NCBI GenBank assembly: GCA_050014195.1
Contig: JBEKDT010000012.1
Coordinates: 94,181-158,180, forward strand
Reading direction: 5' to 3'
Length of the DNA: 64,000 bases
From: Desulfomonilia bacterium
Lineage (GTDB): Bacteria > Desulfobacterota > Desulfomonilia > UBA1062
The notes below the pieces were generated by a model. It was given only the letters and a program-made list of their open reading frames with translations, was not told where the DNA came from and did not search any database. Position 1 is the first letter of the stretch. Each line of letters begins with the position of its first letter. The position numbers and the translations under genes are program-made. Positions 2,013-48,007 of this stretch are shown here, piece by piece.

Positions 2013-2360
2013 TCAGCCTTGTAATGGCCGCAGAGGCGATGGGAGTAAGCTATCGGCAGGCGAAGCGGATCTGGAAGCGATACAGGCCGGCTGTTCAGGG
2101 ATGTTGACAACAACGTCTTCAATGATGAAGGACTGGCAGGCTACTACAAACCCGGAAGCCCTTTCTTCGTCGGTCAGCTGTATGTCTGATTTACATGCAA
2201 CAGAGCCGCGGGTTATCTGGACCAGGCATTTTCCACAGGTCCCTTTTCCTCCGCAGGGCAGCTCGATCATGATCCCTGCCCGGCCCGCGGCATCCATGAG
2301 CAAGGTGCCGGAAGGGACGTCTATGGTTTTTCCTATGGGAAGAAAGGTGATTTTCGGCAT
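2013..2360 (-). pseudogene. 2Fe-2S ferredoxin domain resembling the N-terminus of RACo/AcsV (ASKHA, DUF4445) corrinoid reductive activator; truncated
   Basis: MPKITFLPIGKTIDVPSGTLLMDAA..LPCGGKGTCGKC..VACQ..EDVVVNIP then stops after about 115 aa with no ASKHA ATPase domain. Confidence 0.65.
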
Positions 2361-2420
2361 ATGAATTTTAGTCTTATCTTTAACTGGACCCCTCACCCTG
2401 ACACTCTCCCCATAATTATA

Positions 2421-2580
2421 TGGGAGAGAGAGGACTGGAGATTCATGGCTTTTATGTATCATACTCCCTGTAGATCATCATGCATAAAAACTTTTTTATT
2501 CTCTCATATGCATAGATCTCATTTGAATATCTGGAATAATCTGGACCAATAAAAATCAGATAGTTATCGCAGTAATCTCT
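2421..2580 (+). repeat. ~160-bp direct repeat (pair of 10339-10496) containing boundary element copy A (core 2511-2577)
   Basis: Near-identical to 10339-10496 by eye; ends in aaatcagatagttatcgcagtaatc. Confidence 0.9.
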
Positions 2581-2602
2581 ACTCTTGAGTTTGCTTAGGA
2601 TG

Positions 2603-2636
2603 AAAAAAAGCAGGGCCTGAAATTGACCCTGCTTTT
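2603..2636 (-). terminator. Intrinsic terminator of PEP-CTERM gene 2658-3179
   Basis: AAAAAAAGCAGGG-N-CCCTGCTTTT hairpin with T-tract on minus strand. Confidence 0.75.
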
Positions 2637-2657
2637 AAAATCTTGAGAACCGTAATG

Positions 2658-3179
2658 TTACTTTTTTATCTTCTTTCTAAACCCTGCTAAACCTAACAGA
2701 CCAGAGCCCAGAAGGAGTATGGTGGTCGGTTCAGGGACAGGGGCGCCTTTATCATATTTGAGACATAAAGTGGATGTATCAAGATAGAAAGGAGTTAGAC
2801 AATTTTTATATGTCATACATACATCAAGGTTTTCTCCAAGATCCCATGTGGCAAATGTACCAGTAATATCGAAAGTTTTATCTCCCCAAAAGAATAATTT
2901 ATTGTTGCTTATGGTACCCGTGAAATCATCATTTACATACACCTTATCTTTACTTGGATTTATAAAGAATCCACAGAGTGTAAGTTTTGCTTTGGTTACC
3001 ACGTCAGGCGGAACCTCAAGCCCTAGGGGTGTGGGCTGTACCCATGATAGTGTTCCGGAACCAAACAGGTGAGCTTTGTCTAAATCTACTGTACTGGTAA
3101 AAACAAGAGCATTCCCTACACTACTTACAGCGAACAATAAAACAAATACGCTCAAACAAGAGATAATAACCTTTTTCAT
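2658..3179 (-). CDS. PEP-CTERM sorting domain surface protein
   Basis: Signal peptide; C-terminal VPEPTTILLLGSGLLGLAGFRKKIKK. Confidence 0.92.
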   Translation of the reverse strand: MKKVIISCLSVFVLLFAVSSVGNALVFTSTVDLDKAHLFGSGTLSWVQPTPLGLEVPPDVVTKAKLTLCGFFINPSKDKVYVNDDFTGTISNNKLFFWGDKTFDITGTFATWDLGENLDVCMTYKNCLTPFYLDTSTLCLKYDKGAPVPEPTTILLLGSGLLGLAGFRKKIKK

Positions 3180-3218
3180 AATAAACCTCCCAGTTGTTGT
3201 TATTGTTAGTTTAAATAA

Positions 3219-3234
3219 TGCAATAATCAGGCCA
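3219..3234 (-). promoter_or_regulatory. Sigma54 (-24/-12) promoter
   Basis: TGGCCT-GATTA-TTGCA about 40 nt upstream of the PEP-CTERM start. Confidence 0.7.
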
Positions 3235-3296
3235 ATAGAATAATTGTTTTAATTTTAATATAATAGAACGATAATTAAGAGATGAACTTGCTCTAT

Positions 3297-3413
3297 TGTA
3301 AATTTTATCGACACTAAAATTTATGGTTCTTATGCGAAAAATCCGATAATCACTTTGATTCCATAGCAGTACAAATCATTGCACAATAAATAGTACTGTA
3401 AATTAATTCGACA
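3297..3413. promoter_or_regulatory. Two PEP-CTERM-box-like enhancer sites (3297-3313, 3397-3413)
   Basis: TGTAAA-N6-CGACA twice, 100 bp apart, upstream of the sigma54 site; resembles the PrsR-type activator box of PEP-CTERM genes. Confidence 0.7.
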
Positions 3414-3506
3414 GTGATCTTTTATTCTGACAGAGGCAGATTACTATCTTGCTGGTTGAATAAAAGCCCTCCGCCATCCTGGCTGGCAATTGAAAGTGTA
3501 GATAAC

Positions 3507-3607
3507 GTGCCAATCGTTACGCTCTGCCGTGATATGACAATTTCGAAGATCTGTTCTCAAGATCATCAGTTTTATTCATCTTAAACTGAGATGATATCTT
3601 AGTGATC
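3507..3607 (+). repeat. Boundary element copy B
   Basis: gtgcca...aagatcatcagtttt-attcatctt-aaactgagatgatatcttagtgatc. Confidence 0.75.
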
Positions 3608-3681
3608 AACAACATTGATTGAGGTGAATTATCATGGTAGATGCGGTTATCCATTAAAACACGTTAAGGTAATCATTAAAG

Positions 3682-4137
3682 ATGAATAAGCTGAAAACTG
3701 TTCTCGTTTATTTTATAGTCTTATCCTTGGGAATTGTATGTGGAGGTTATTTGTTCTCCCAATCACAACCCAGATCATTTTTATCAATATCGAATTGTCA
3801 ACATTGTTTAAGTGAGAATGATCTTGTCGGGCTGCTTGCCTCAGTCGGTATACAAAAATTTTCTAAGCTTATCCCTTCTGTTGTATTCGAAACGGACAAA
3901 ACAATCGCCATTAAGATCCCGGATACACAGGTTCGTTATCACTATGTCATTATTCCTAAGAAAGACATCAAGAATATCGGTGAACTTACTGATGCCGATG
4001 CTCAATATTTAATTGATACATTTTTTGTAGCAAGAAAGATCATTGAGGATAAGAACTTATTCAAATATACCCTTCATACAAATGGACCTGGTATTCAAGA
4101 CGTTACATATTTACATTTTCATTTGATAGCCGAGTGA
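3682..4137 (+). CDS. HIT-domain protein with N-terminal membrane anchor/signal
   Basis: HYVIIPKK and C-terminal NGPGIQDVTYLHFHL (HIT-like, first His replaced by Tyr). Confidence 0.8.
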   Translation: MNKLKTVLVYFIVLSLGIVCGGYLFSQSQPRSFLSISNCQHCLSENDLVGLLASVGIQKFSKLIPSVVFETDKTIAIKIPDTQVRYHYVIIPKKDIKNIGELTDADAQYLIDTFFVARKIIEDKNLFKYTLHTNGPGIQDVTYLHFHLIAE

Positions 4138-4274
4138 CACCGCATCTACCACCACTGTCCCGATCCGCTTCTGATATAAATCGCTTCGCCCTTAATCCTT
4201 CAACCATTTCCTATTTACTCGATGGGAAAACGCAGGAGTCTGCGCTTTTGTGGAGATGCAAGGACGTGTGTCAT

Positions 4275-4329
4275 ACCTGGCATCTCAAATAACCAGTCTA
4301 TATACGTCCTGAGCAATAGTCCATTCATG
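4275..4329 (-). pseudogene. Tiny relic resembling Lon protease internal motif
   Basis: HEWTIA/RTYIDWLFEMP (frameshifted) resembles Lon EYTVxRTYLDWLxELPW. Confidence 0.35.
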
Positions 4330-4584
4330 AACTCACCCACTTGGGATAGAGGGAGCAAATCAAAACTCTTCCTGCTCGAATAAGGCGATCTTATCTTGAG
4401 ATTGGTCCTAGGTATCAATGCCCATCGTGATATTATCGCATGGCATGGCATCAAATGTGGGTTTCAAGATGATGTGGGAAGGAATGAGAGATCCTGGATA
4501 AGATATTATGGTTGAGTAGATGGAGGTGGGATTGATGAGTTATTGCAGGGATCTTTATTTTTCATAGGGTATAAAACGATAGTC

Positions 4585-4980
4585 TCAAAACGGTGCACAC
4601 AAATAGGACATGAAATTATTCAAGCCTTTATCATCTTTTCGTGTGAAGATAATTGCCATCCCTGAATCAGTCTTCCGCACCACTTGCCCGATGACCCAGA
4701 TTACCTTGCCGAACGGCTCTACATTAAGGCTAGCACTTACAAAACCATCAACATTAGGGCAATGCCCTGTCTCAACGAACATTCCACCCTTGCTGATGTT
4801 ACAGACTCTTCCCATCCTGTTCGCATAATCATTGTCACGATAAGAGAACATCATGTTTACCCTTACTCTCTTATAAGCCCGCTGATTATCCGTAGTCTGA
4901 GATATTTTTGCATGAGAAATAATTGACGTAGGTTCTTTCAAAACAGTATCCTCCACTTGCAAGCAAAACAGTATAACCAT
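4585..4980 (-). CDS. Single-domain PilZ (c-di-GMP receptor) protein
   Basis: QRAYKR (RxxxR) and NISKGG (D/NxSxxG) motifs; true start may be a TTG near 4941. Confidence 0.85.
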   Translation of the reverse strand: MVILFCLQVEDTVLKEPTSIISHAKISQTTDNQRAYKRVRVNMMFSYRDNDYANRMGRVCNISKGGMFVETGHCPNVDGFVSASLNVEPFGKVIWVIGQVVRKTDSGMAIIFTRKDDKGLNNFMSYLCAPF

Positions 4981-4989
4981 AAGTTAACC

Positions 4990-5088
4990 TGCCATGTCAT
5001 TTGAATACATAATTAACATCATCTATAGATAATATTTCAAGATCATCGGTTTCTGGGCCTTACAAAACCAGAAAGTTATCGCAGAATC
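4990..5088 (+). repeat. Boundary element copy C
   Basis: tgcca...tatagataatatttcaagatcatcggtttc-tgggccttaca-aaaccagaaagttatcgcagaatc. Confidence 0.85.
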
Positions 5089-5124
5089 ATCGCGTTAACA
5101 GTTAGACAGGAATAGATGAAAAAC

Positions 5125-5157
5125 AAAAAAAGGCAGGGCCTTTCAATGACCCTGCTT
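5125..5157 (-). terminator. Intrinsic terminator of PEP-CTERM gene 5182-5799
   Basis: AAAAAAAGGCAGGG-N-CCCTGCTT, paralogous to 2603-2636. Confidence 0.75.
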
Positions 5158-5181
5158 CTGATATCCAGTCAATATGTTGTA

Positions 5182-5799
5182 TTACTTTTTCAGCTTTTTC
5201 CTGAACCCTGCTAGCCCAATAAGACCTGATCCAAGAAGAATCATTGTACATGGTTCAGGAACAGGGGGAGTTTTTACAATTAGATCTTGAGCTTTAAAGG
5301 GAAGTGTTGTGGGTAGGGCCATTTCAGCAATCTCATACCCTGTACCAGTATAATCATATCCTTTAAAATCTTCCATATATTTTGTGAAGTCAGCTTGGAC
5401 TGTTGGATTACTGATATTAGTAATCTGTCCATACATAATATCCCATATTGCCAACTGCAATGCTGGAGTATCTGCTTTATTACCCTCTTTGTTAATCAAC
5501 CATGCTGATTCATAACCAAGATAGTCATGGTTTAGGTTGTTAGTAAGGGATACATTATAGTATGTATAAGGAACGTATGTTACATCATACAGGTCAACAC
5601 AATATCCTGTTGTAGGCTGCCCATTAATGTTGAGATGAAACTGTCCAGCATACTCACCTGTAGGATTGCCGTTCAAATCAAAATTAACGTAGGTATAGTC
5701 ATTGATGCTACCAGTAATATTGATTGTATTTGCTCCTACTGATGCTGTGAAGCCAAGCACGATAAGTAGTAATGCAACTGTCATGGAAAATTTTTTCAT
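5182..5799 (-). CDS. PEP-CTERM surface protein with thioester-domain-like motifs
   Basis: Signal peptide; GYCVD, LQLAIW, AQDLI motifs; VPEPCTMILLGSGLIGLAGFRKKLKK tail. Confidence 0.9.
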   Translation of the reverse strand: MKKFSMTVALLLIVLGFTASVGANTINITGSINDYTYVNFDLNGNPTGEYAGQFHLNINGQPTTGYCVDLYDVTYVPYTYYNVSLTNNLNHDYLGYESAWLINKEGNKADTPALQLAIWDIMYGQITNISNPTVQADFTKYMEDFKGYDYTGTGYEIAEMALPTTLPFKAQDLIVKTPPVPEPCTMILLGSGLIGLAGFRKKLKK

Positions 5800-5836
5800 A
5801 TTGACCTCGTAGATGTTGTTTTATTAGCGATTATTA

Positions 5837-5852
5837 TCCAATATTTATGCCA
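5837..5852 (-). promoter_or_regulatory. Sigma54-like promoter
   Basis: TGGCAT-AAATA-TTGGA (one mismatch at -12), same distance from the start as at 3219. Confidence 0.5.
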
Positions 5853-6078
5853 ATTAACGTATGTCTTTGATATAAATAATTAATTACTTCAGACAGTATA
5901 AAATAGGGGTATTGGCGTAATGGATAAAATAGAAATATATTTCCATAAAGATAGTAATTATTTACATCAATAAAATGCGTAGAACGGCCTATCGATTTCT
6001 ATGATCATAGAACCAGATAACTGTAAATCATACCATCTATAACTGATTGATAAGGTATAATTAATAGATTACGTTATT

Positions 6079-6820
6079 TGTCATGTGTCACACCCAGAGT
6101 TGGTTTGATCTTTTCATAGATCTTATTTCAAAATCATCGGTTTTGTGTGTCACGAATGCCGAGAGGCAATGCTGTGTAGGAGATGAGGGGAGGCCCCTCG
6201 GAGCCGGTTTACAGGAGCAGGCTTCAAACCGCCCTAAGCTGCGATGGTAAAGAGCCATGGTGGTGAGCGTTAGGGAAAAGGCGCAAGGAATGCGTCAGGT
6301 AGTATCGGAGAGACGAGCGAAAGCGAACCAATCGATGAGGCATCGAAAATGATCACAGATGATGTCAAAACCAGGGTCCAAAACTAACTCTGGGAACAGC
6401 TCAGAGGAAACCTGTTTACTGTCTGAGCGGCATCCGGTGTAGAGATGGTGTGAATCCGATACGGGCTTTTACACGGAACGTGAGAACCTGTCGTCTGGAT
6501 GAGAAGGGAGAAATCCAAGGAGAGGCCCCCCGAGGATGAGAGTACCGATGCCAGGCACAGGGGCGGGACAGCTCGTAGTAGTGAAGAAGCTCCTGTAATG
6601 GGAGTGGAGCGAAGGGGCTGTGTTGTTCAGGAGGTATTTATTGATCAACCAGAAATGGGAGGAATCAATGAGTATTGCCAAGCCAAGCTATACGATTGGC
6701 TGAACAATGGGAGCCGGATGAGCTGAGAGGTTCACGTCCGGTTCTACGAGCAGCTGGGGGTGAAATTCCCCTGGCTGACTTTCCCAGGAATTTCAAAACC
6801 AGAAAGTTATCATAGGAATC
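6079..6820 (+). repeat. Boundary element copy D, split by the intron (left 6079-6144, right 6785-6820)
   Basis: Rejoined sequence catagatcttatttcaaaatcatcggtttt|caggaatttcaaaaccagaaagttatcataggaatc matches copies C, E and H. Confidence 0.85.
6145..6784 (+). mobile_element. ORF-less group II intron (IIB, bacterial class D-like), about 640 nt
   Basis: 5' GTGTG; domain V GAGCCGGATGAGCTGAGAGGTTCACGTCCGGTTC; domain VI with bulged A; domain IV keeps only RBS + ATGAGTATTGCCAAGCCA (MSIAKP) and a few codons, so the RT ORF is deleted. Confidence 0.92.
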
Positions 6821-6907
6821 TTCAGTCCCATCTTCCAATAAGATATTTCATTTCATAAAAAGGAAGTGACTCATATACACTTTGTCTAATCTATTGAACT
6901 AGCCCAA

Positions 6908-7072
6908 TTATGATGTTATCTTTTTATTTAACTCCCCAAGCACGATTAGGTTGACACCTAAAAAAAATATATTTAATGGACCAGGTTCGAAAGTTGGATT
7001 TTGATAGGTGTATCCATTCAGTAAAATGAGTAGAAAAAGAAGACAAACTATTGGGAATATCCCTTTCCACAT
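6908..7072 (-). CDS. 54-aa mini-protein: hydrophobic N-terminus plus degenerate PEP-CTERM-like tail (not in ORF track)
   Basis: MWKGIFPIVCLLFLLILLNGYTYQNPTFEPGPLNIFFLGVNLIVLGELNKKITS; strong ACAGGAGG RBS 5 nt upstream. Confidence 0.65.
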   Translation of the reverse strand: MWKGIFPIVCLLFLLILLNGYTYQNPTFEPGPLNIFFLGVNLIVLGELNKKITS

Positions 7073-7207
7073 AAGAACCTCCTGTACTCATAAGCTTAGA
7101 TAAGCCCCTTTTAGATAAAATCTCCATAGTGAAAGTCAATAGGCTTAGATGACAACATTTGGTTAAAGTCATTATAAACTTATAATCAAGGGTATGTATA
7201 CGTTGCG

Positions 7208-7310
7208 GTGCCAGGGTGACATGCTTAGATATGGAGGCCTTGCTGCATAGGTTTCAACTTAAGATCATCAGTTTCAGGCATTATAATACCGAGAAGAAAT
7301 CGCAATAATC
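7208..7310 (+). repeat. Boundary element copy E
   Basis: gtgcca...ccttgctgcataggtttcaacttaagatcatcagtttcaggcattataataccgagaagaaatcgcaataatc. Confidence 0.85.
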
Positions 7311-7467
7311 TTTACCCTAGAGAAAATAAGCTAAATCCCTTTTGATATGATTATAAATCATCGAACTATCAATGGCCGTTAGATCTTGCCACTGTAAGTC
7401 TTCTTAAATTTATCAAAATTAAAGGAGCATATACATCTCTCCTATAGCTCACCTATGATTCATTTTC

Positions 7468-7671
7468 TCACATATGCAATTTCAGCTCGATAATATATGA
7501 ACCTTCTCCCGTTGTGTATTTCTCAACTCCTACACCGACATCACGCATTGTAAAGCCAGATGTTTTAGCCGTATTATCGATGTCCTTAATGCATTGAGTA
7601 AGCAATTTAAATATTTGTATTTTAGTACGCTCAACATTTAATTTGTTGGCCTGTAGAGTTTTTTCCTCCAT
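7468..7671 (-). CDS. Small hypothetical protein (67 aa)
   Basis: MEEKTLQ... start with AGGAGA RBS; own sigma54 promoter upstream. Confidence 0.6.
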   Translation of the reverse strand: MEEKTLQANKLNVERTKIQIFKLLTQCIKDIDNTAKTSGFTMRDVGVGVEKYTTGEGSYIIELKLHM

Positions 7672-7773
7672 GACCGTTCTCCTTTTTCCTCGCATCAGGA
7701 GGATCATATGATGATATGTCTAAGATGAGTTCTAGTTGAAAGTGAATTTTGATAATATATCTAAGCTAGTGTA

Positions 7774-7789
7774 GGCAAATTATGTGCCA
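7774..7789 (-). promoter_or_regulatory. Sigma54 promoter
   Basis: TGGCAC-ATAAT-TTGCC, near consensus. Confidence 0.75.
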
Positions 7790-7840
7790 TCACATAACAG
7801 TTTGATATATTTATTTTAATTTTATCGTCCTTCCGAAGAA

Positions 7841-7936
7841 TGCAAAGTAATTCGACAGTTCATTATGCTGTATACTTTATATAACATTGAAATTATTAAT
7901 ATTTATATAGGAGCATAACTGTTAAATATTTCGACA
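7841..7936. promoter_or_regulatory. Two PEP-CTERM-box-like sites (7841-7857, 7920-7936)
   Basis: tgcaaagtaattcgaca and tgttaaatatttcgaca, same 17-nt motif as 3297/3397. Confidence 0.65.
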
Positions 7937-7969
7937 GTTCAATTTGATATTTAACACCAATGAACTGAA

Positions 7970-8044
7970 GATTTCGTGCCATGGATCACGCTTAGCCTAT
8001 AGTATATATCTCTTGAGTTAATATCTGGTTGACCATAACTGAAG
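7970..8044 (+). repeat. 75-bp repeat X (pair of 12415-12489)
   Basis: gatttcgtgccatg...atatctcttgagttaatatctggttgaccataactgaag aligns with 12415-12489 at equal length. Confidence 0.7.
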
Positions 8045-8071
8045 ATGTCGTGACTCTATATGTGGATTGAT

Positions 8072-8158
8072 AAAAACCGGACCGCACAAGGGAGCGATCC
8101 GGCTTAAGAGGAGGTCAAAAGTCCGTTCGTCAAGGATGACGAGGAGAGTTTGACTGAC
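8072..8158 (-). ncRNA. Candidate small RNA (about 87 nt) with CU-rich loops and intrinsic terminator
   Basis: sigma70-like TTGCAT (8186-8191) with TATAAA/TAAACT; stems GUCAAA/UUUGAC and UCGUCA-UCCU-UGACGA; terminator GCCGGAUCGC/GCGGUCCGGU-UUUU pairs fully only on the minus strand. Confidence 0.55.
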
Positions 8159-8288
8159 AATAGTTTATAAGATCGACTTTGGAAAATGCAACCTTGACGA
8201 TTCTATGCGGTCTTCTTGGGCTTCTCATGGGTGGTGTGGAAAGAACCAAAGAATCCTTCAATTCGTAAATCCCTTTTTCAACAGACTC

Positions 8289-8355
8289 TGCCAGTATCGG
8301 CACTCTTACATGATATGACCATTTACATATATCTCATCCGGAGATCATCGGTTTT
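8289..8355 (+). repeat. Boundary element copy F (left half, followed by intron copy 2)
   Basis: tgcca...catatatctcatccggagatcatcggtttt|GTATG. Confidence 0.8.
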
Positions 8356-8884
8356 GTATGTCACGAATGCCGAGAGGCAATGCTGTGTAGGAGATGAGGG
8401 GAGGCCCCTCGGAGCCGGTTTACAGGAGCAGGCTTCAAACCGCCCTAAGCTGCGATGGTAAAGAGCCATGGTGGTGAGCGTTAGGGAAAAGGCGCAAGGA
8501 ATGCGTCAGGTAGTATCGGAGAGACGAGCGAAAGCGAACCAATCGATGAGGCATCGAAAATGATCACAGATGATGTCAAAACCAGGGTCCAAAACTAACT
8601 CTGGGAACAGCTCAGAGGAAACCTGTTTACTGTCTGAGCGGCATCCGGTGTAGAGATGGTGTGAATCCGATACGGGCTTTTACACGGAACGTGAGAACCT
8701 GTCGTCTGGATGAGAAGGGAGAAATCCAAGGAGAGGCCCCCCGAGGATGAGAGTACCGATGCCAGGCACAGGGGCGGGACAGCTCGTAGTAGAGAAGAAG
8801 CTCCTGTAATGGTAATGGGAGTGGAGCGAAGGGGCTGTGTTGTTCAGGAGGTATTTATTGATCAACCAGAAATGGGAGGAATCA
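8356..8884 (+). mobile_element. Second, 3'-truncated copy of the group II intron
   Basis: Almost identical to 6145-6667; 5' GTATG variant, gtaatg duplication; identity stops just before the IEP ATG, no domains V/VI. Confidence 0.92.
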
Positions 8885-8958
8885 GGGATCTACAATCCAC
8901 CCTTAGGAGAAGATGTCTCAAGTTGTTTATTAAAAGCAGGGTCTCATTATGCAGCCCC

Positions 8959-9084
8959 TGTCATGCAGCCCCTTGCCCGGAACAATCTGATGATTATTAT
9001 ATAAGGTTCCAATAAAAAGGACTCCATGGAATTCCTCATGTGGTCCTCTACGGGAAAGGAGATAACTTTATGGGAAAATGGGAT
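8959..9084 (+). repeat. ~125-bp promoter/leader-like repeat (inverted pair of 1741-1866)
   Basis: TTGCCC-N16-TATTAT, leader, AAAGGAGA RBS and a short ATG ORF. Confidence 0.9.
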
Positions 9085-9248
9085 TCGTCATAGGAGTTTT
9101 TGTAATGATAGTTCTAGTGCTTGCGATTGTCTATTTTTAATGCATAGAACACAAGATTTTATGCAAGATACCATCCAAAAAGGAGAAATCGATGGAAAAC
9201 ATTTCTCAGGGAATGAGACAGATTTTGGATGAACAAATAGTATCTATA

Positions 9249-10115
9249 ATGAAGTCCAAGCTCTTGATTCTATTCGTAGTAGCGGCATTGGCCTCGCTTC
9301 TTTACCCACCCTTGGTATCGGCCACGCCAATACTGGGTTCGGCGCAGAGCTTCGCGGTTCTGGGTCACGAAACGGTGACCAATGGCCATAGCGCCCCGAA
9401 CCCAACCACTCAAATATACGGGAATTTGGGTGTGACGCCAAAAACTTCGGTCACTGGCTTTTATCCTGACGGGACCGTGAGCGGAGGAACGATACACATA
9501 AATGATGGGGTCGCGCAACTTGCTCTGGCGGATGCAACGACTGCGTACAATACGCTAGCAGGCTTGCCGTTCGTTTACAACTATACTGGTTTTGTCCTGG
9601 GTTCAGCGGGATACACCACGCTCACGCCGGGTGTCTATCATTTTGACTCATCGGCTCAGTTGACAGGAGCACTCACTCTCGATTTCGAAAACGAGTCCAA
9701 TAAGGACTTCATTTTCCAGATAGGGAGTACGCTCACGACCGCAAGCAGCTCTTCTGTTAACGTCATCAATGGGAATTCAACTGACGGTGTGTATTGGCAG
9801 GTCGTAAGTTCTGCGACTCTGGGTTCAGACACTACATTCGAAGGAAATATTCTTGCTCTTGCAAGTGTTAGCCTTGATCCTCGCGCACAGATTCTGTGCG
9901 GGAGAGCCATCGCGCTAACTGGGGCAGTGTCGTTGATAGACAATCTTATCTCCAACAATAACACCGCCCAAAACTTCGGTAGCGGCCGCTCCGACTTCGG
10001 CAGCTACGGCTTCAGTGGCAGCGCGGCGCCGGTCCCGGAACCCTCAACCATGCTCCTCCTTGGCTCCGGGCTGCTTGGATTGGTGTCATTGGGGAAAAGG
10101 TTCAAGAAAGTTTGA
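9249..10115 (+). CDS. DUF3494 (ice-binding-like beta-solenoid) protein with PEP-CTERM tail
   Basis: LGSAQSFAVLG, TLTPGVYHFDSSAQLTG, FIFQIGSTLTTAS, VYWQVVSSATLG, FEGNILA, GRAIALTGAVSL; VPEPSTMLLLGSGL tail; ORF track start is 9192. Confidence 0.92.
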   Translation: MKSKLLILFVVAALASLLYPPLVSATPILGSAQSFAVLGHETVTNGHSAPNPTTQIYGNLGVTPKTSVTGFYPDGTVSGGTIHINDGVAQLALADATTAYNTLAGLPFVYNYTGFVLGSAGYTTLTPGVYHFDSSAQLTGALTLDFENESNKDFIFQIGSTLTTASSSSVNVINGNSTDGVYWQVVSSATLGSDTTFEGNILALASVSLDPRAQILCGRAIALTGAVSLIDNLISNNNTAQNFGSGRSDFGSYGFSGSAAPVPEPSTMLLLGSGLLGLVSLGKRFKKV

Positions 10116-10163
10116 TCAGGCGTAACAGACGCATTCTTCAGGGGGCAGGTCAGTAAGATTGAG

Positions 10164-10257
10164 ATATATGAGGTTGACCCGCTAACCTGCCCCACGTGTT
10201 ACGGCACGATGCGATACTGGCCTTCGTCGAGGAAGAGCCGGTAATCCGAAAATACTG
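10164..10257 (+). pseudogene. Frameshifted C-terminal relic of an IS91-family-like transposase
   Basis: IYEVDPLTCPTCYGTMR/ILAFVEEEPVIRK/IL resembles the C-terminal zinc-ribbon of IS91-like transposases. Confidence 0.65.
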
Positions 10258-10338
10258 CGTACAAAGAATCAGAAATTGGTGACGTGTTCACATTATTCCC
10301 CTGCAAGGATGAAAAATAGAAACGTCCCCTTTTCTCTT

Positions 10339-10496
10339 TGGGGAGAGGGGACTGGAGATTCATGGCTTTTATGTCTCATACTCCCTGCAGATCATCATGT
10401 ATAAAAACTATTCATTCTCTCATATGCACAGATCTCATTTGAATATCTGGAATAATCTGGACCTATAAAAATCAGATAGTTATCGCAGTAATCTCT
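10339..10496 (+). repeat. ~160-bp direct repeat (pair of 2421-2580) containing boundary element copy G (10427-10493)
   Basis: Near-identical to 2421-2580. Confidence 0.9.
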
Positions 10497-10738
10497 GCTA
10501 TCGGATAATTAAAACCATCAAAACAATATATTATAACACGATCTCTTCAATACGTTGTCATACTTTCTAAACTCTAAAGTTTTAAGAGTAAAAATCCGTT
10601 TAATACCATAGTGTAATTTCCTTATGTTGTTTCATGATTATTAGGTCACGAGAAGAAGTTCGATCTTAGAAGTTTTACAAGCAAATTAGTTCTCAGGAAT
10701 GCTTTTATTACAGGCACCAGAACTGGAGGAAGGCGAAC

Positions 10739-12292
10739 ATGTTTAATATCATCAATAACATGTCAATCAGGTTGAAAATGGTTGGTATAGCAATCTTTGG
10801 TATTCTCTCTTTTGTATGTCTCCTTTCACTCGTTTATTACCTCAATTTCGATTCTGAGTTGAAAAGACTTGCAATGGCAGACCAGGAGACTCGCCAGCGG
10901 GTTTTCTGGCATCTACTTGAGGAAAAAGGCCAGAATATTGATATTGTCGACAACAAACTTAAGATTGGCAACTATGTAATCAATGATAATTTTGAGCTTC
11001 CTGATATGATGAAGAAACTCTGTGGAGGAACAGCAACTATCTTCATGCATGATGAGCGGGTATCCACCAATGTCATGACACCGGATGGTACACGTGCTAT
11101 TGGCACGAAACTACAAGGTGCAGCATATGAAGCTATTTTCAATAATCAAAGATCATACAGGGGTTTGGCAAATATTCTTGGAACACCTTACTTTACCGCC
11201 TATGATCCTATTAAAAACAACAAGGGAGAAATTATCGGGGTACTCTATACAGGTATTAAGAAAAGCGAATACTATGCATCATTCAACACGCTCATCACCC
11301 ACATCCTCATACTGACACTTATAGTTACTATTGGCACGGCTTTTTTGTGGATGTGGCTTGTAGATGGCATGATCACCAAGCCAATGAACTATGTCATCAG
11401 ACGTATTGCTGATATAGTCGAAGGAGAAGGCGATTTAACCAAAAGGGTGGACACGCAAGGAAATGATGAGATAGGAAAGCTGGGTCAGGGGATCAATGCA
11501 TTTCTAACAAATTTCGAAAGCATAATTGCTAAGGTAAAAGAGACGTCAACTCAACTAATTTCCGCTATACAAGAAGTTGACGCCGGTTCACAGGGACTCT
11601 CTCAAATAACCCAGGAACAGGCATCGGCTGTTGAACAGGTGGCCGCCACGATTGAACAGATGACATCGAGCATTAAGAATAATGCTACTCAGGCAGATAA
11701 GGGGCACACAATGACAAAAAGTCTGGTTCAACAGACTACTGTCACACGAGAGTCAACCAAAGATCTTATGAAGGCCATGGATGAGATCTCTATGTCTTCC
11801 AAGAAAATTGGGGACATTATCACAACAGTGAACGAAGTGGCCTTCCAGACAAATCTCCTGGCCTTGAATGCTGCTGTGGAAGCAGCCCGTGCCGGTGAGC
11901 ATGGTAAAGGATTTGCCGTTGTAGCCCAAGAGGTCAGATCATTGGCACAACGTTCAGCCGATGCCGCCAAACAGATTAAGGAAATGATAGAGGATAGTGT
12001 TAAAAAAGTTCAGGTTGGCGATGAGATAGTTAAGAAATCTGTAGTTTCTCTAAAGGAGATCATTAATCATATCGACATGCTTTCCCAGACCATGGAGGAG
12101 ATCTCCTCTTCATCAAATGAGCAATCCTCAGGTGTAGATGAAGTGAACAGAGCTATAAGCCAGATTGACACTACTACTCAACAGAATGCTTCCACGGTAG
12201 AAGAACTAGCTGCTGGAGCAAATATGCTGAGTAATGGAGCAGATGAGCTCAAAGAGACCGTTGAGCGTTTTAAAGTTTTAAATGAGGGATAG
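10739..12292 (+). CDS. Methyl-accepting chemotaxis protein (Cache sensor, HAMP, signalling domain)
   Basis: Two TMs; GGTATIF..RVSTN Cache motif; [31 protein letters not shown]. Confidence 0.95.
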
Positions 12293-12414
12293 GCATAATC
12301 TGTATCGATATTATTGATATACAAAATAATAAGAGACCCTTGTAATGTATGCCCCATGTTAAGGGCAACAACTTTGATATGAATATAAGAAAAATATCTT
12401 CTAAACAAAGCGTA

Positions 12415-12546
12415 GATTTCGTGCCATGACCTTCAGTTTATCCATATTGAATATTTCTTAAGGTTATATCTGTTTGATCCGGACTGAAGGTTATGTGCCA
12501 CCACATGGATTCTTTCATCAGTGCGCATAGTTCTTCCCAAGATCAT
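12415..12546 (+). repeat. Repeat Y (12415-12489) followed by a degenerate left half of the boundary element (12495-12546)
   Basis: Aligns with 7970-8044; then gtgcca...catagttcttcccaagatcat. Confidence 0.55.
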
Positions 12547-12696
12547 AACAAATTTATAAGCAGGGGTAGACGACGTTTCTTATGCCGTTATGTGTTGGTG
12601 TCCTCATGCCAGAAACCCCAAACTCTGGGCTTACCATTAGATAATGTACGCATTAACTGGATGGTCCTTATCTTAGAGTCATGCTTTATCTTGATA

Positions 12697-12840
12697 GAGC
12701 CAATTGCAAAAGACCGAGATCGTTATTCCAGCGGGAGCGGGAATCCAGTCTTTTCAAAATATTCTGGACCCCCGCTACCCGATCAGGTCGAGGACAAGTT
12801 TCGCGGGGGTGACACCTTTTTTGAGTTTTGCAATTGCCTC
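12697..12840. repeat. REP/RPE-like palindromic element
   Basis: Terminal IR caattgcaaaa/ttttgcaattg enclosing gttattccagcgggagcgggaatccag...ctggacccccgc...cgcgggggtgac. Confidence 0.7.
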
Positions 12841-47712: not shown

Positions 47713-47773
47713 ACGTCGATTCAAGATGTTTTGTCTGTGCTTGTCGACCTCTTCCTATGACCTGATAGCTGTA

Positions 47774-47876
47774 GATTCCTGCGATTTTATCTCGGTTTTA
47801 AGTTGTCTGAAAACTGAAAATCTGGGTTTGAAACCTATGAAGCAAGGTACTCTATATTAGAGCGTGTCAAATGGTG
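47774..47876 (-). repeat. Boundary element copy H (opposite orientation)
   Basis: Reverse complement ccttgcttcataggtttcaaacccagattttcagttttcagacaacttaaaaccgagataaaatcgcaggaatc closely matches copy E. Confidence 0.85.
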
Positions 47877-48007
47877 TATCAGTCATAATTTTCATAGTTC
47901 TTCCCCTGGGGTAAAAGTCCCCATGGTGGGGTACAATTCCCCCCATAGGGAAGGTTCCTTGTAAGGCCCTGATTGCTAACACTATGAGTTTAAAGGGGTA
48001 ATCTTCA

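Follow-up and report, generated by a model that had tools for sequence, protein, structure and literature searches.

The 64,000-nt window analysed here, a stretch of contig C12 from a Desulfomonilia bacterium (window position = C12 position minus 94180), carries near its start a series of gene modules divided by a recurrent element, which raises the question of what this element is and how the modules came to lie between its copies. An initial annotation had answered with an integron-like cassette array delimited by a non-canonical recombination site. We read the array region (positions 2300-12700) directly, together with a repeat search and an nhmmer profile built from the copies. The genome under study, G000, comprises 4.2 Mb in 29 contigs; all genomes compared are metagenome-assembled genomes (MAGs), and the relatives are not independent of one another. 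The reading that we favour, with a probability of roughly 0.55, is that the element, termed F1, is together with a shorter type, F2, a lineage-specific intergenic mosaic repeat that acts as a landing pad and at whose end motifs, the arms, modules are reshuffled.

The profile gives 109 hits at an E-value below 0.01, on 21 of the 29 contigs of G000, and 62 of them score at least 40 bits and are called strong copies here; profile coordinates are accurate to about 10 nt. An alignment of 32 full copies (A1) defines a unit of about 125-130 nt, longer than the 65-100 bp first estimated, running from (A/T)AGATTnCGTGCCA to ATCGCAGnAATC with the consensus ...ATAGATTACGTGCCAT..G.CACGCTCTGATATGAAGTG...CGTATGTTTCAAC.CAAGATCTTCAGTTTTCAG.CATCTTAAAACCGAGAAGAAATCGCAGTAATCT. 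Its left arm, AGATTnCGTGCCA, and its right arm, ATCGCAGnAATCT, are imperfect inverted repeats of each other, with an indel, and enclose a conserved centre of about 85 nt. F2 has only the first ~45 nt in common with F1.

In the array, the profile finds eight F1 pieces, every one on the + strand, and thereby recovers the copies first noted at 2511, 3507, 4990, 6079/6785, 7208, 8289 and 10427 (Table 1). The repeat search likewise returns the blocks shared between them (families D2 and D4). The split copy at 6079/6785 is indeed one copy, parted by a 640-nt group II intron, and the copy at 8289 is real and interrupted by a 5′ fragment of the same intron. The copy at 12495, described as degenerate, is not recovered by the profile, but a related F2 sharing the first ~45 nt lies at 12412-12480. 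The array starts about 2 kb ahead of the window (C12:92202), and its order across copies A, D, F and G, where metagenome contigs break, rests on the MAG assembly.

Contrary to the idea of a local integron-like array, F1 is genome-wide and genus-wide. At least 10 comparable clusters occur in G000, for example on contigs C3, C5, C6, C7, C19 and C21, and the core 13-mer AGATCATCRGTTT occurs 19 times on 11 contigs, against about 0.25 occurrences expected in random sequence. A census with a sequence-only covariance model detects F1 in 12 of 14 genomes of the same genus, with 0 to at least 84 copies per genome (the top count being such a lower bound), in 3 of 10 further genera of that family, and in none of 16 genomes from the family next to it. 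A scan with a 17-nt core matched mainly by chance in unrelated phyla and was set aside. Open reading frames (ORFs) make up 89% of the genome, yet 52 of the 62 strong copies are free of overlap with an ORF of at least 70 aa. Upstream genes run in the same orientation as F1 in 32 cases and in the opposite one in 30; for downstream genes the counts are 26 and 34. The modules between copies carry genes either way round, with their own promoters, and reach 4 kb rather than the 0.4-2 kb first described. F1 is a non-coding, gene-independent intergenic repeat, the neighbours of which include surface-protein, cyclic di-GMP (c-di-GMP) and chemotaxis genes.

The uniform orientation of neighbouring copies, by comparison, stands as first observed. 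In G000, all 25 adjacent pairs of strong copies less than 10 kb apart are co-oriented; with every weak hit included the count is 43 same versus 9, and in loci fetched from two relatives it is 25 same and 4 opposite. The strand of F1 shows no association with GC skew at 25-50 kb, nor per cluster (20 versus 17 of 37). A replication-strand bias of the IS200/IS605 type was rejected on this ground, together with the lack of TnpB in the genome and the lack of linkage to Y1 transposases: both Y1 transposase genes (PF01797, C1:92082 and C5:220358) lack F1 within 1.2 kb on either side.

A structured RNA or regulatory site (a small RNA, leader, operator, or invertible promoter flanked by the arms) might show what F1 shows in its conserved blocks, in three small consensus hairpins with 75% of cells paired in register, and in the classes of genes that it adjoins. 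We consider this reading very unlikely. The pairing is no better than in shuffles: 115 of 500 reach the value observed for the three hairpins, and 425 of 500 that of the arm-arm stem (62.4% versus a shuffled mean of 63.8%). With RNAalifold, the + strand yields no consensus structure, and the − strand only two weak hairpins (−8 kcal/mol). The RGTTT/AAACY hairpin of the initial annotation is complementary in the consensus, but covariation gives it no support. When 4227 Rfam covariance models were run on the whole window, group II intron alone matched at gathering level, and copy B has no match even at an E-value of 1 or less. A sigma-70 promoter search in the F1 centre found no consistent site, and a sigma-54 promoter on the − strand was rejected on reading the sequence, in which TGGCACG lacks the TTGC −12 box. 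The copies keep no fixed orientation to genes, match no Rfam family and yield no strand-switch joints in four metagenome runs.

What F1 does carry, repeatedly and at fixed positions, is mobile elements. The inserts in copies D and F are predicted to be one ORF-less group II intron. In copy D, RF01999 matches with 115.3 bits (cut-off 36, 6185-6300) and RF00029 with 48.5 bits (cut-off 40, 6709-6784), and the 5′ end at 6145 reads GTGTG, in agreement with GUGYG. The fragment in copy F matches RF01999 at 8396-8511 and is 98.7% identical over intron positions 3-522, while a full copy of 98.4% identity lies at C24:1840-2480, also within F1. All three G000 copies of this family (family A) sit after ...TCGGTTTT of F1 and point along the element. 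A second ORF-less family, B, about 70% identical to family A, occurs in relatives G002, G003 and G007. In 7 of 7 copies it lies on the opposite strand and directly follows the right arm's reverse complement (...GATAACTGCGATAAA joined to GTGCG...; read by eye), and in 3 of the 7 the remaining F1 is found on the far side. The family B site corresponds to about profile position 110, where 3′-side homology blocks start (see below). One reverse-transcriptase gene was found in G000, at C10:107986.

The left arm is likewise occupied. G000 has an IS110-family gene (PF01548) at C7:138625-139647, and relatives G002, G003 and G011 carry a type 61% identical to it, which sits within the left arm of F elements. 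In 4 of 4 copies the left junction reads ...GAT..C(G/A)TG followed by ATAATCATCTAAAAGGCACC, the IS-side sequence after C(G/A)TG opening ATAATCATCTAAAAGG, and the upstream flanks are unrelated to one another. In 3 of 3 copies the right junction passes from ...CCTTTTAATGG (...TTAATGG) into GTGCCA and then into an F1 or F2 centre. GTG is thus present at both junctions, as is the short core of IS110 targets (PMC11208160). Judged by these junctions, the left arm is an IS110-family target site, directional and at a fixed position. A further group II intron (RF01999, 106.8 bits) lies at L212:3433-3552 (G002 C14), less than 1 kb from an IS110 element in an F2 left arm, with several parasites gathered at one junction.

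The 3′ non-coding part of the insertion sequence (IS) holds GGGTGCCTGG and CGTAATC within 26 nt; in sense, the former equals the target's right half, and in antisense the latter equals the left half. The guide arrangement described for bridge RNA (PMC11208160) matches these halves when read on the opposite strand, and the conserved 268-nt stretch 3′ of the IS110 genes (L212-L215) is a candidate guide (bridge or seek) RNA. A 268-nt, non-coding remnant of this IS end stands solo in G000 at C5:35859-36126 (L015:5860-6127), where it abuts copy E2; an interpretation of this repeat as a gene was rejected, since it is the 3′ non-coding end of an IS110-family element. The transposase has homologues in each of the 5 genomes that carry at least 51 F1 copies and in none of the 10 that carry 23 or fewer (5 of 5 versus 1 of 10 at the level of the Pfam family), but the F1-rich genomes are among the closest kin of G000, so that this co-occurrence is not independent evidence.

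A fourth lodger is a miniature inverted-repeat transposable element (MITE) of 143 nt with perfect 18-bp inverted ends (GAGGCTGTCGAAAAACTC), nested in two F1 copies of a relative, each time at profile position 73. Its end sequence also delimits the intact IS110-family element of G000 (L207:1916-3660 = C7:138415-140159), and the MITE is therefore apparently a miniature derivative of it. Together, these insertions show that no fewer than four site-specific mobile elements use F1 as a landing pad.

F1 might also be a mobile element in its own right, MITE-like or derived from IS ends and moved in trans, in which case arrays would reflect insertion preferentially near existing copies or beside them in a fixed direction. 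This is the foremost of the alternatives, yet we regard it as unlikely. The arms resemble imperfect terminal inverted repeats, pairing in 62% of cells when in register and in 28-48% when slid, and showing no covariation; copy number varies among congeners as given above; and in most of 275 pairwise alignments homology between copies stops at the limits of the element. In addition, F2 ends 3′ in GATAATCATC, which is similar to ATAATCATCT at the left end of the IS, and IS110 elements can move sub-modules separately, as reported in a preprint on ISPpu9. Against this, no target duplication of 3-8 nt at any offset is present in 28 full-length copies, 15 indel pairs that set G000 beside loci of relatives include no clean pair of empty and filled sites, and the copies are mutually only 70-80% alike, so that there has been no recent burst. 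The real MITE of the lineage, with its perfect inverted repeat, also looks different.

The second line of evidence for a mosaic repeat with reshuffled modules comes from the points at which homology between genomes breaks. We compared G000 with loci fetched from G003 and G004, two relatives whose loci were chosen for carrying F1, using blocks of at least 400 nt and at least 85% identity (108 blocks, 186 ends away from locus edges). Twenty of the 186 ends fall within 25 nt of a strong F1 copy, where 5.2 are expected, or about four times chance. Of these 20, 12 lie in profile positions 110-126, 4 in 13-35 and 1 in 71-95, with none in 36-70 or 96-109; 16 are located in the two arms. Blocks on the 3′ side begin at the right motif, while those on the 5′ side stop at either motif. 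Within this comparison, homology blocks common to relatives are shown to end preferentially in the two arms. The element delimits modules, as the initial annotation had it, and homology breaks at its ends, at two sites per element rather than at one fixed position. A linkage-block analysis of variable columns for internal crossovers gave short-range association only and was uninformative.

Two cases illustrate these breaks. The variable island that contains the array measures 14.3 kb in G000 and 1.09 kb, with one PEP-CTERM gene, in G003, the closest relative, between flanks of 92-94% identity; homology breaks off on the left at C12:92282, where an A-type copy has its 3′ end, and resumes at window 12417, in the left arm or first bases of copy H. 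The second case is a 4.1 kb module with a PAS histidine kinase that is 96% identical in G000 and G004 and has different neighbours in G004. In base-level alignments, the shared stretch starts at the motif ATCGAAGTAATC of the upstream element and ends just past ...CCGTGCCAGG of the downstream one, with a right arm on one side and a left arm on the other; neither element has the same centre in the two genomes. An identical left module with its left arm can precede an F1 centre in one genome and an F2 centre in another.

Arm-to-arm limits invite comparison with known recombination sites. As the initial annotation had noted, F1 is neither a canonical attC nor a dif site. The arms are unlike dif, a 28-bp site in which a 6-bp spacer parts two 11-bp arms, and the best dif-like site of the genome, at C10:72956, has 2 mismatches to a dif consensus. 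In the pdif modules of Acinetobacter plasmids, short recombination sites in inverted orientation enclose the gene modules; the arms of F1 are not XerC/XerD-type sites, and an 85-nt centre lies between them. Nor is F1 a repetitive extragenic palindromic (REP) sequence with its tyrosine transposase (RAYT): it is ~125 nt long and not a 20-40 nt palindrome with 5′ GTAG, and neither Y1 gene of the genome is flanked by it.

That F1 is a canonical integron attC in integrase-less clusters (CALIN) is extremely unlikely. Its length of ~125 nt and its co-oriented arrays would fit, and introns are known to home into attC; integron attC sites, CALINs and group IIC-attC introns (PMC3001079, PMC7923331) share with F1 co-oriented repeats of ~60-140 nt between modules, inverted end motifs, and introns that home into the site, one family in antisense near the 3′ end motif. 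However, a complementary RYYYAAC/GTTRRRY pair 45-140 nt apart on either strand is present in 0 of 62 strong copies, so that F1 is without the R″/R′ consensus, and it has no full-length hairpin. A crude scan of the assembly also brought up no tight grouping of R″/R′ pairs. Breakpoints lie at both ends of the element, and the modules are multi-gene, in either direction and with promoters of their own, not promoterless single ORFs. The best hit to the integron integrase IntI (TIGR02249) in the genome reaches 82.7 bits against a cut-off of 265, with none on C12, although CALINs lack IntI by definition and the missing integrase alone does not exclude one.

The search for a co-occurring recombinase, as the initial annotation had suggested, found no enzyme dedicated to F1. 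A tyrosine integrase beside the C7 array was rejected as the cognate enzyme, being present in 0 of 14 congeners and unrelated to the C19 integrase. Its gene is duplicated at 97% identity (C7:69927-71142 and C7:130613-131839), the second copy lying ~30 nt past an F2 and the first 0.6 kb past an F1 and an IHF/HU-like gene.

Public metagenomes allow the stability of the array to be followed. In 24 DNA runs from 23 peat and wetland studies (2017-2025), 81-97% of the sampled words of window 2400-12399 are present. No RNA run appears among those listed as containing this stretch. In four independent runs, contigs match the array with 0 differences in pieces of up to 3.5 kb; they bridge copies B, C and E and stop at copies A, D, F and G. 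Neither module circles, which the initial annotation had proposed to look for, nor alternative arm junctions nor strand-switch joints were found with adequate support in these four runs. A single deletion-type joint from 2513 to 10430, on one contig of run X22, runs through 34 nt that copies A and G share; rather than an arm crossover, it fits homologous recombination or an assembly-graph switch between these repeats of 160 nt. Joints from 7258 to 8007 and from 7311 to 8200 were not used, their sides being only 22-24 nt. If array shuffling occurs, it is slow on this time scale, and ongoing shuffling is unsupported.

These data bear on a true cassette system, in which the arms would be crossover sites of a dedicated recombinase or of target-to-target RNA-guided IS110 activity, and modules would be excised as circles and inserted at other F copies. 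Such a system would account for the co-orientation (25/25 and 25/29), for breakpoints that cluster in the arms and skip the equally conserved core, for one module with different neighbours and arm-to-arm limits in two species, and for the growth of the island from 1 to ~11 modules within fixed flanks; the left arm, moreover, is shown to be the target of a recombinase (IS110). It is nonetheless unlikely, and ranks second among the alternatives: no integron integrase was found, the integrase beside one array is confined to G000, each element has two breakpoint zones where a single crossover is expected, no module inversions were seen, circles and alternative arm junctions are missing from the four runs, and the array is near-identical in 23 studies. 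We give still less credence to the proposal that F elements are docking sites of an integrase-free, possibly IS110-type RNA-guided cassette system that stacks promoter-bearing modules (surface proteins, c-di-GMP effectors, chemoreceptors) in co-oriented arrays, as an integron analogue with another recombinase and a two-site junction. Of the recombination site first postulated, then, one part holds, in that the left end is targeted by IS110 in 4 of 4 copies, and one does not, in that active shuffling is not seen across the 23 studies.

Under the preferred reading, a landing pad with modules reshuffled at its arms, the likeliest route would be ectopic homologous recombination between near-identical mobile elements of 0.6-1.6 kb lodged at matching F positions, followed by loss of the intron or by scarless excision of the IS110 element; the excision would yield an F element that is a clean chimera. 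A recombinase working directly on the arms would be a less likely route. Scarless excision is a property of IS110 elements, which also target intergenic repeats such as REP (PMC11208160). Recombination via parked mobile elements would explain why the two breakpoint zones coincide with the IS and intron B sites and why the conserved core is spared. The window array would then be one island grown to ~11 modules, while only one module lies between these flanks in the closest relative.

Several observations weigh against this account. The breakpoint sample is small, with 20 ends from two relatives resolved to ~10 nt, and conserved arms let BLAST alignments run through them. The array is stable across the runs of 23 studies, and no junction was caught with a mobile element still in place on both partners. 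Parked elements leave the multiplication of F1 itself unexplained, with no empty site and no target duplication, and strict local co-orientation is not predicted for a passive repeat. Finally, the link between IS110 and copy number is confounded by the F1-rich genomes being closest to G000, and two of the F1-poorer genomes are only 71-76% complete.

No prior description of the F1 family was found in the literature or Rfam, though supplementary files of papers might list such repeats. The closest analogues that we can name are the Neisseria intergenic mosaic elements (NIME) with their dRS3 repeats, followed by IS110 targets of the REP type. NIME consist of RS elements, 50-150 bp long, between dRS3 inverted repeats of 20 bp, in arrays that adjoin variable surface-protein genes and vary between strains (PMC1797815); dRS3 is the integration site for a phage-borne transposase or recombinase, and the repeats are proposed as recombinase sites promoting exchange of neighbouring genes. 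On that description, NIME and F1 have in common short inverted-repeat sites that flank units of 50-150 bp, arrays beside surface genes, and sites that are integration targets. F1 differs in its phylum, its unrelated sequence, arms that are half-sites at the ends of one unit, genes between units, co-oriented copies, group II introns that target the unit, and the lack of tandem dRS3-RS-dRS3 runs.

REP sequences and bacterial interspersed mosaic elements (BIME) as targets of IS621, ISPpu9 and ISPpu10 (PMC11208160) resemble F1 as multi-copy intergenic, directional and sequence-specific targets with a small stem-loop beside the target, in F1 CGTGCC...GGCACG at the insertion point, and in that IS copies mark rearrangement boundaries. 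F1, unlike them, is ~125 nt long and modular rather than a 20-40 nt palindrome, and has no RAYT-type gene associated. The TeI3 introns of Thermosynechococcus, ORF-less group II introns whose spread depends on a helper (PMC2882425), are, like families A and B, compact, multi-copy, free of reverse transcriptase and bound to one fixed target; the F1 introns, by contrast, target a dispersed host repeat and form two families on opposite strands.

If our reading is correct, an uncultured peat lineage of Thermodesulfobacteriota has independently evolved a counterpart of what is proposed for the Neisseria NIME, short conserved junction sequences at which accessory gene blocks are exchanged. The link is unusually clear in this lineage, where an IS110-family element of the bridge-RNA type and two intron families are caught in the very junction motifs at which interspecies homology breaks. 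An old idea thereby becomes testable in a second system, namely that neighbouring genes are reshuffled without scars by site-specific elements lodged in dispersed repeats. F1 and its cognate IS110-family element would offer a natural multi-copy target system for study. For genome annotation, F1 explains why contigs of these MAGs break at such places.

Table 1. F elements and the sequences lodged in them, in window coordinates unless a contig or locus is named.
Feature	Position	Strand	Details
Copy A	2423-2583	+	composite 'A-type' unit; last 77 nt (2507-2583) = F1 3′ part incl. right arm GTTATCGCAGTAATC, profile 56-131 (nhmmer); unit 92-93% identical to 10340-10499 (repeat families D3, D7); 96% duplicate at C12:91776-92284, just ahead of window
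Copy B, full-length F1	3489-3611	+	66.5 bits, profile 4-129
Copy B, parts	left arm ~3498-3512; core 3558-3573; right arm ~3594-3607	+	core CAAGATCATCAGTTTT
Copy C, F1 3′ two-thirds	5021-5086	+	core, hairpin region, right arm; profile 57-123
Copy D, 5′ part	6061-6144	+	ends ...ATCATCGGTTTT at intron insertion point; nhmmer span 6061-6169
ORF-less group II intron (predicted) within copy D	6145-6784	+	640 nt, same direction as element
Copy D, 3′ part	6785-6826	+	CAGGAATTTCAAAACCAGAAAGTTATCATAGGAATC; profile 87-131; nhmmer span 6782-6826
Copy E, full-length F1	7191-7315	+	81.4 bits, profile 6-130; left-arm GTGCCA 7208-7213, right arm 7299-7311
F2-type start	7960-8040	+	left arm GAAGATTTCGTGCCATGG, then different, shorter centre; 7755-7982 is 78% identical to C2:96108-96336
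Copy F, F1 5′ part	8288-8355	+	ends ...ATCATCGGTTTT; nhmmer span 8288-8375
Intron 5′ fragment	8356-8884	+	~529 nt, truncated on 3′ side; same predicted group II intron as in copy D
Copy G, A-type composite	10340-10499	+	10424-10499 = F1 3′ part with right arm, profile 57-131
Copy H, F2-type	12412-12546	+	left arm GTAGATTTCGTGCCATG and short centre (12412-12480), then degenerate stretch at 12495
Full-length F1 outside array	47769-47896	-	C12:141949-142075, 90.3 bits
Nested MITE	L074:2960-3103 and 4180-4325 (G003 C43)		same F1 position in both

Several further repeats were seen in and around the array. A 240-nt repeat at window 4159-4399 recurs at C18:3028-3266 and C3:28471-28639 (83-88%), where it abuts an F1 right arm; in the window, the HIT gene separates it from copy B, as if inserted at the right arm. 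An inverted repeat pair of ~125-170 nt lies at 1694-1865 and 8942-9084, with 91% identity between 1742-1867 and 8959-9084, and recurs at C11:15359-15549 and in several relatives. In addition, a TGT-N11-ACA box (ACTGTAAATTAATTCGACAGT type) is present in four copies, at 3295-3415 and 7839-7938, upstream of minus-strand genes; to judge by sequence, these boxes are likely activator-binding sites for the sigma-54 promoters of the initial annotation.

Other features were noted in G000 and its relatives. A phosphoketolase-like gene fragment, recognised by eye, is truncated at different points in G003 (L073:5700-5975) and G000 (C12:84045-84100), and is followed by F1, full in G003 and internally deleted in G000. 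On C5 (L015:14093/14094, 12013-12126), conserved genes differ in length by 243 nt and 114 nt, both in frame, between G000 and G003/G004; these differences are unrelated to the F element. Just upstream of the variable island lies a kaiB-kaiB-kaiC cluster, at L011:701-3151 (C12:80700-83150).

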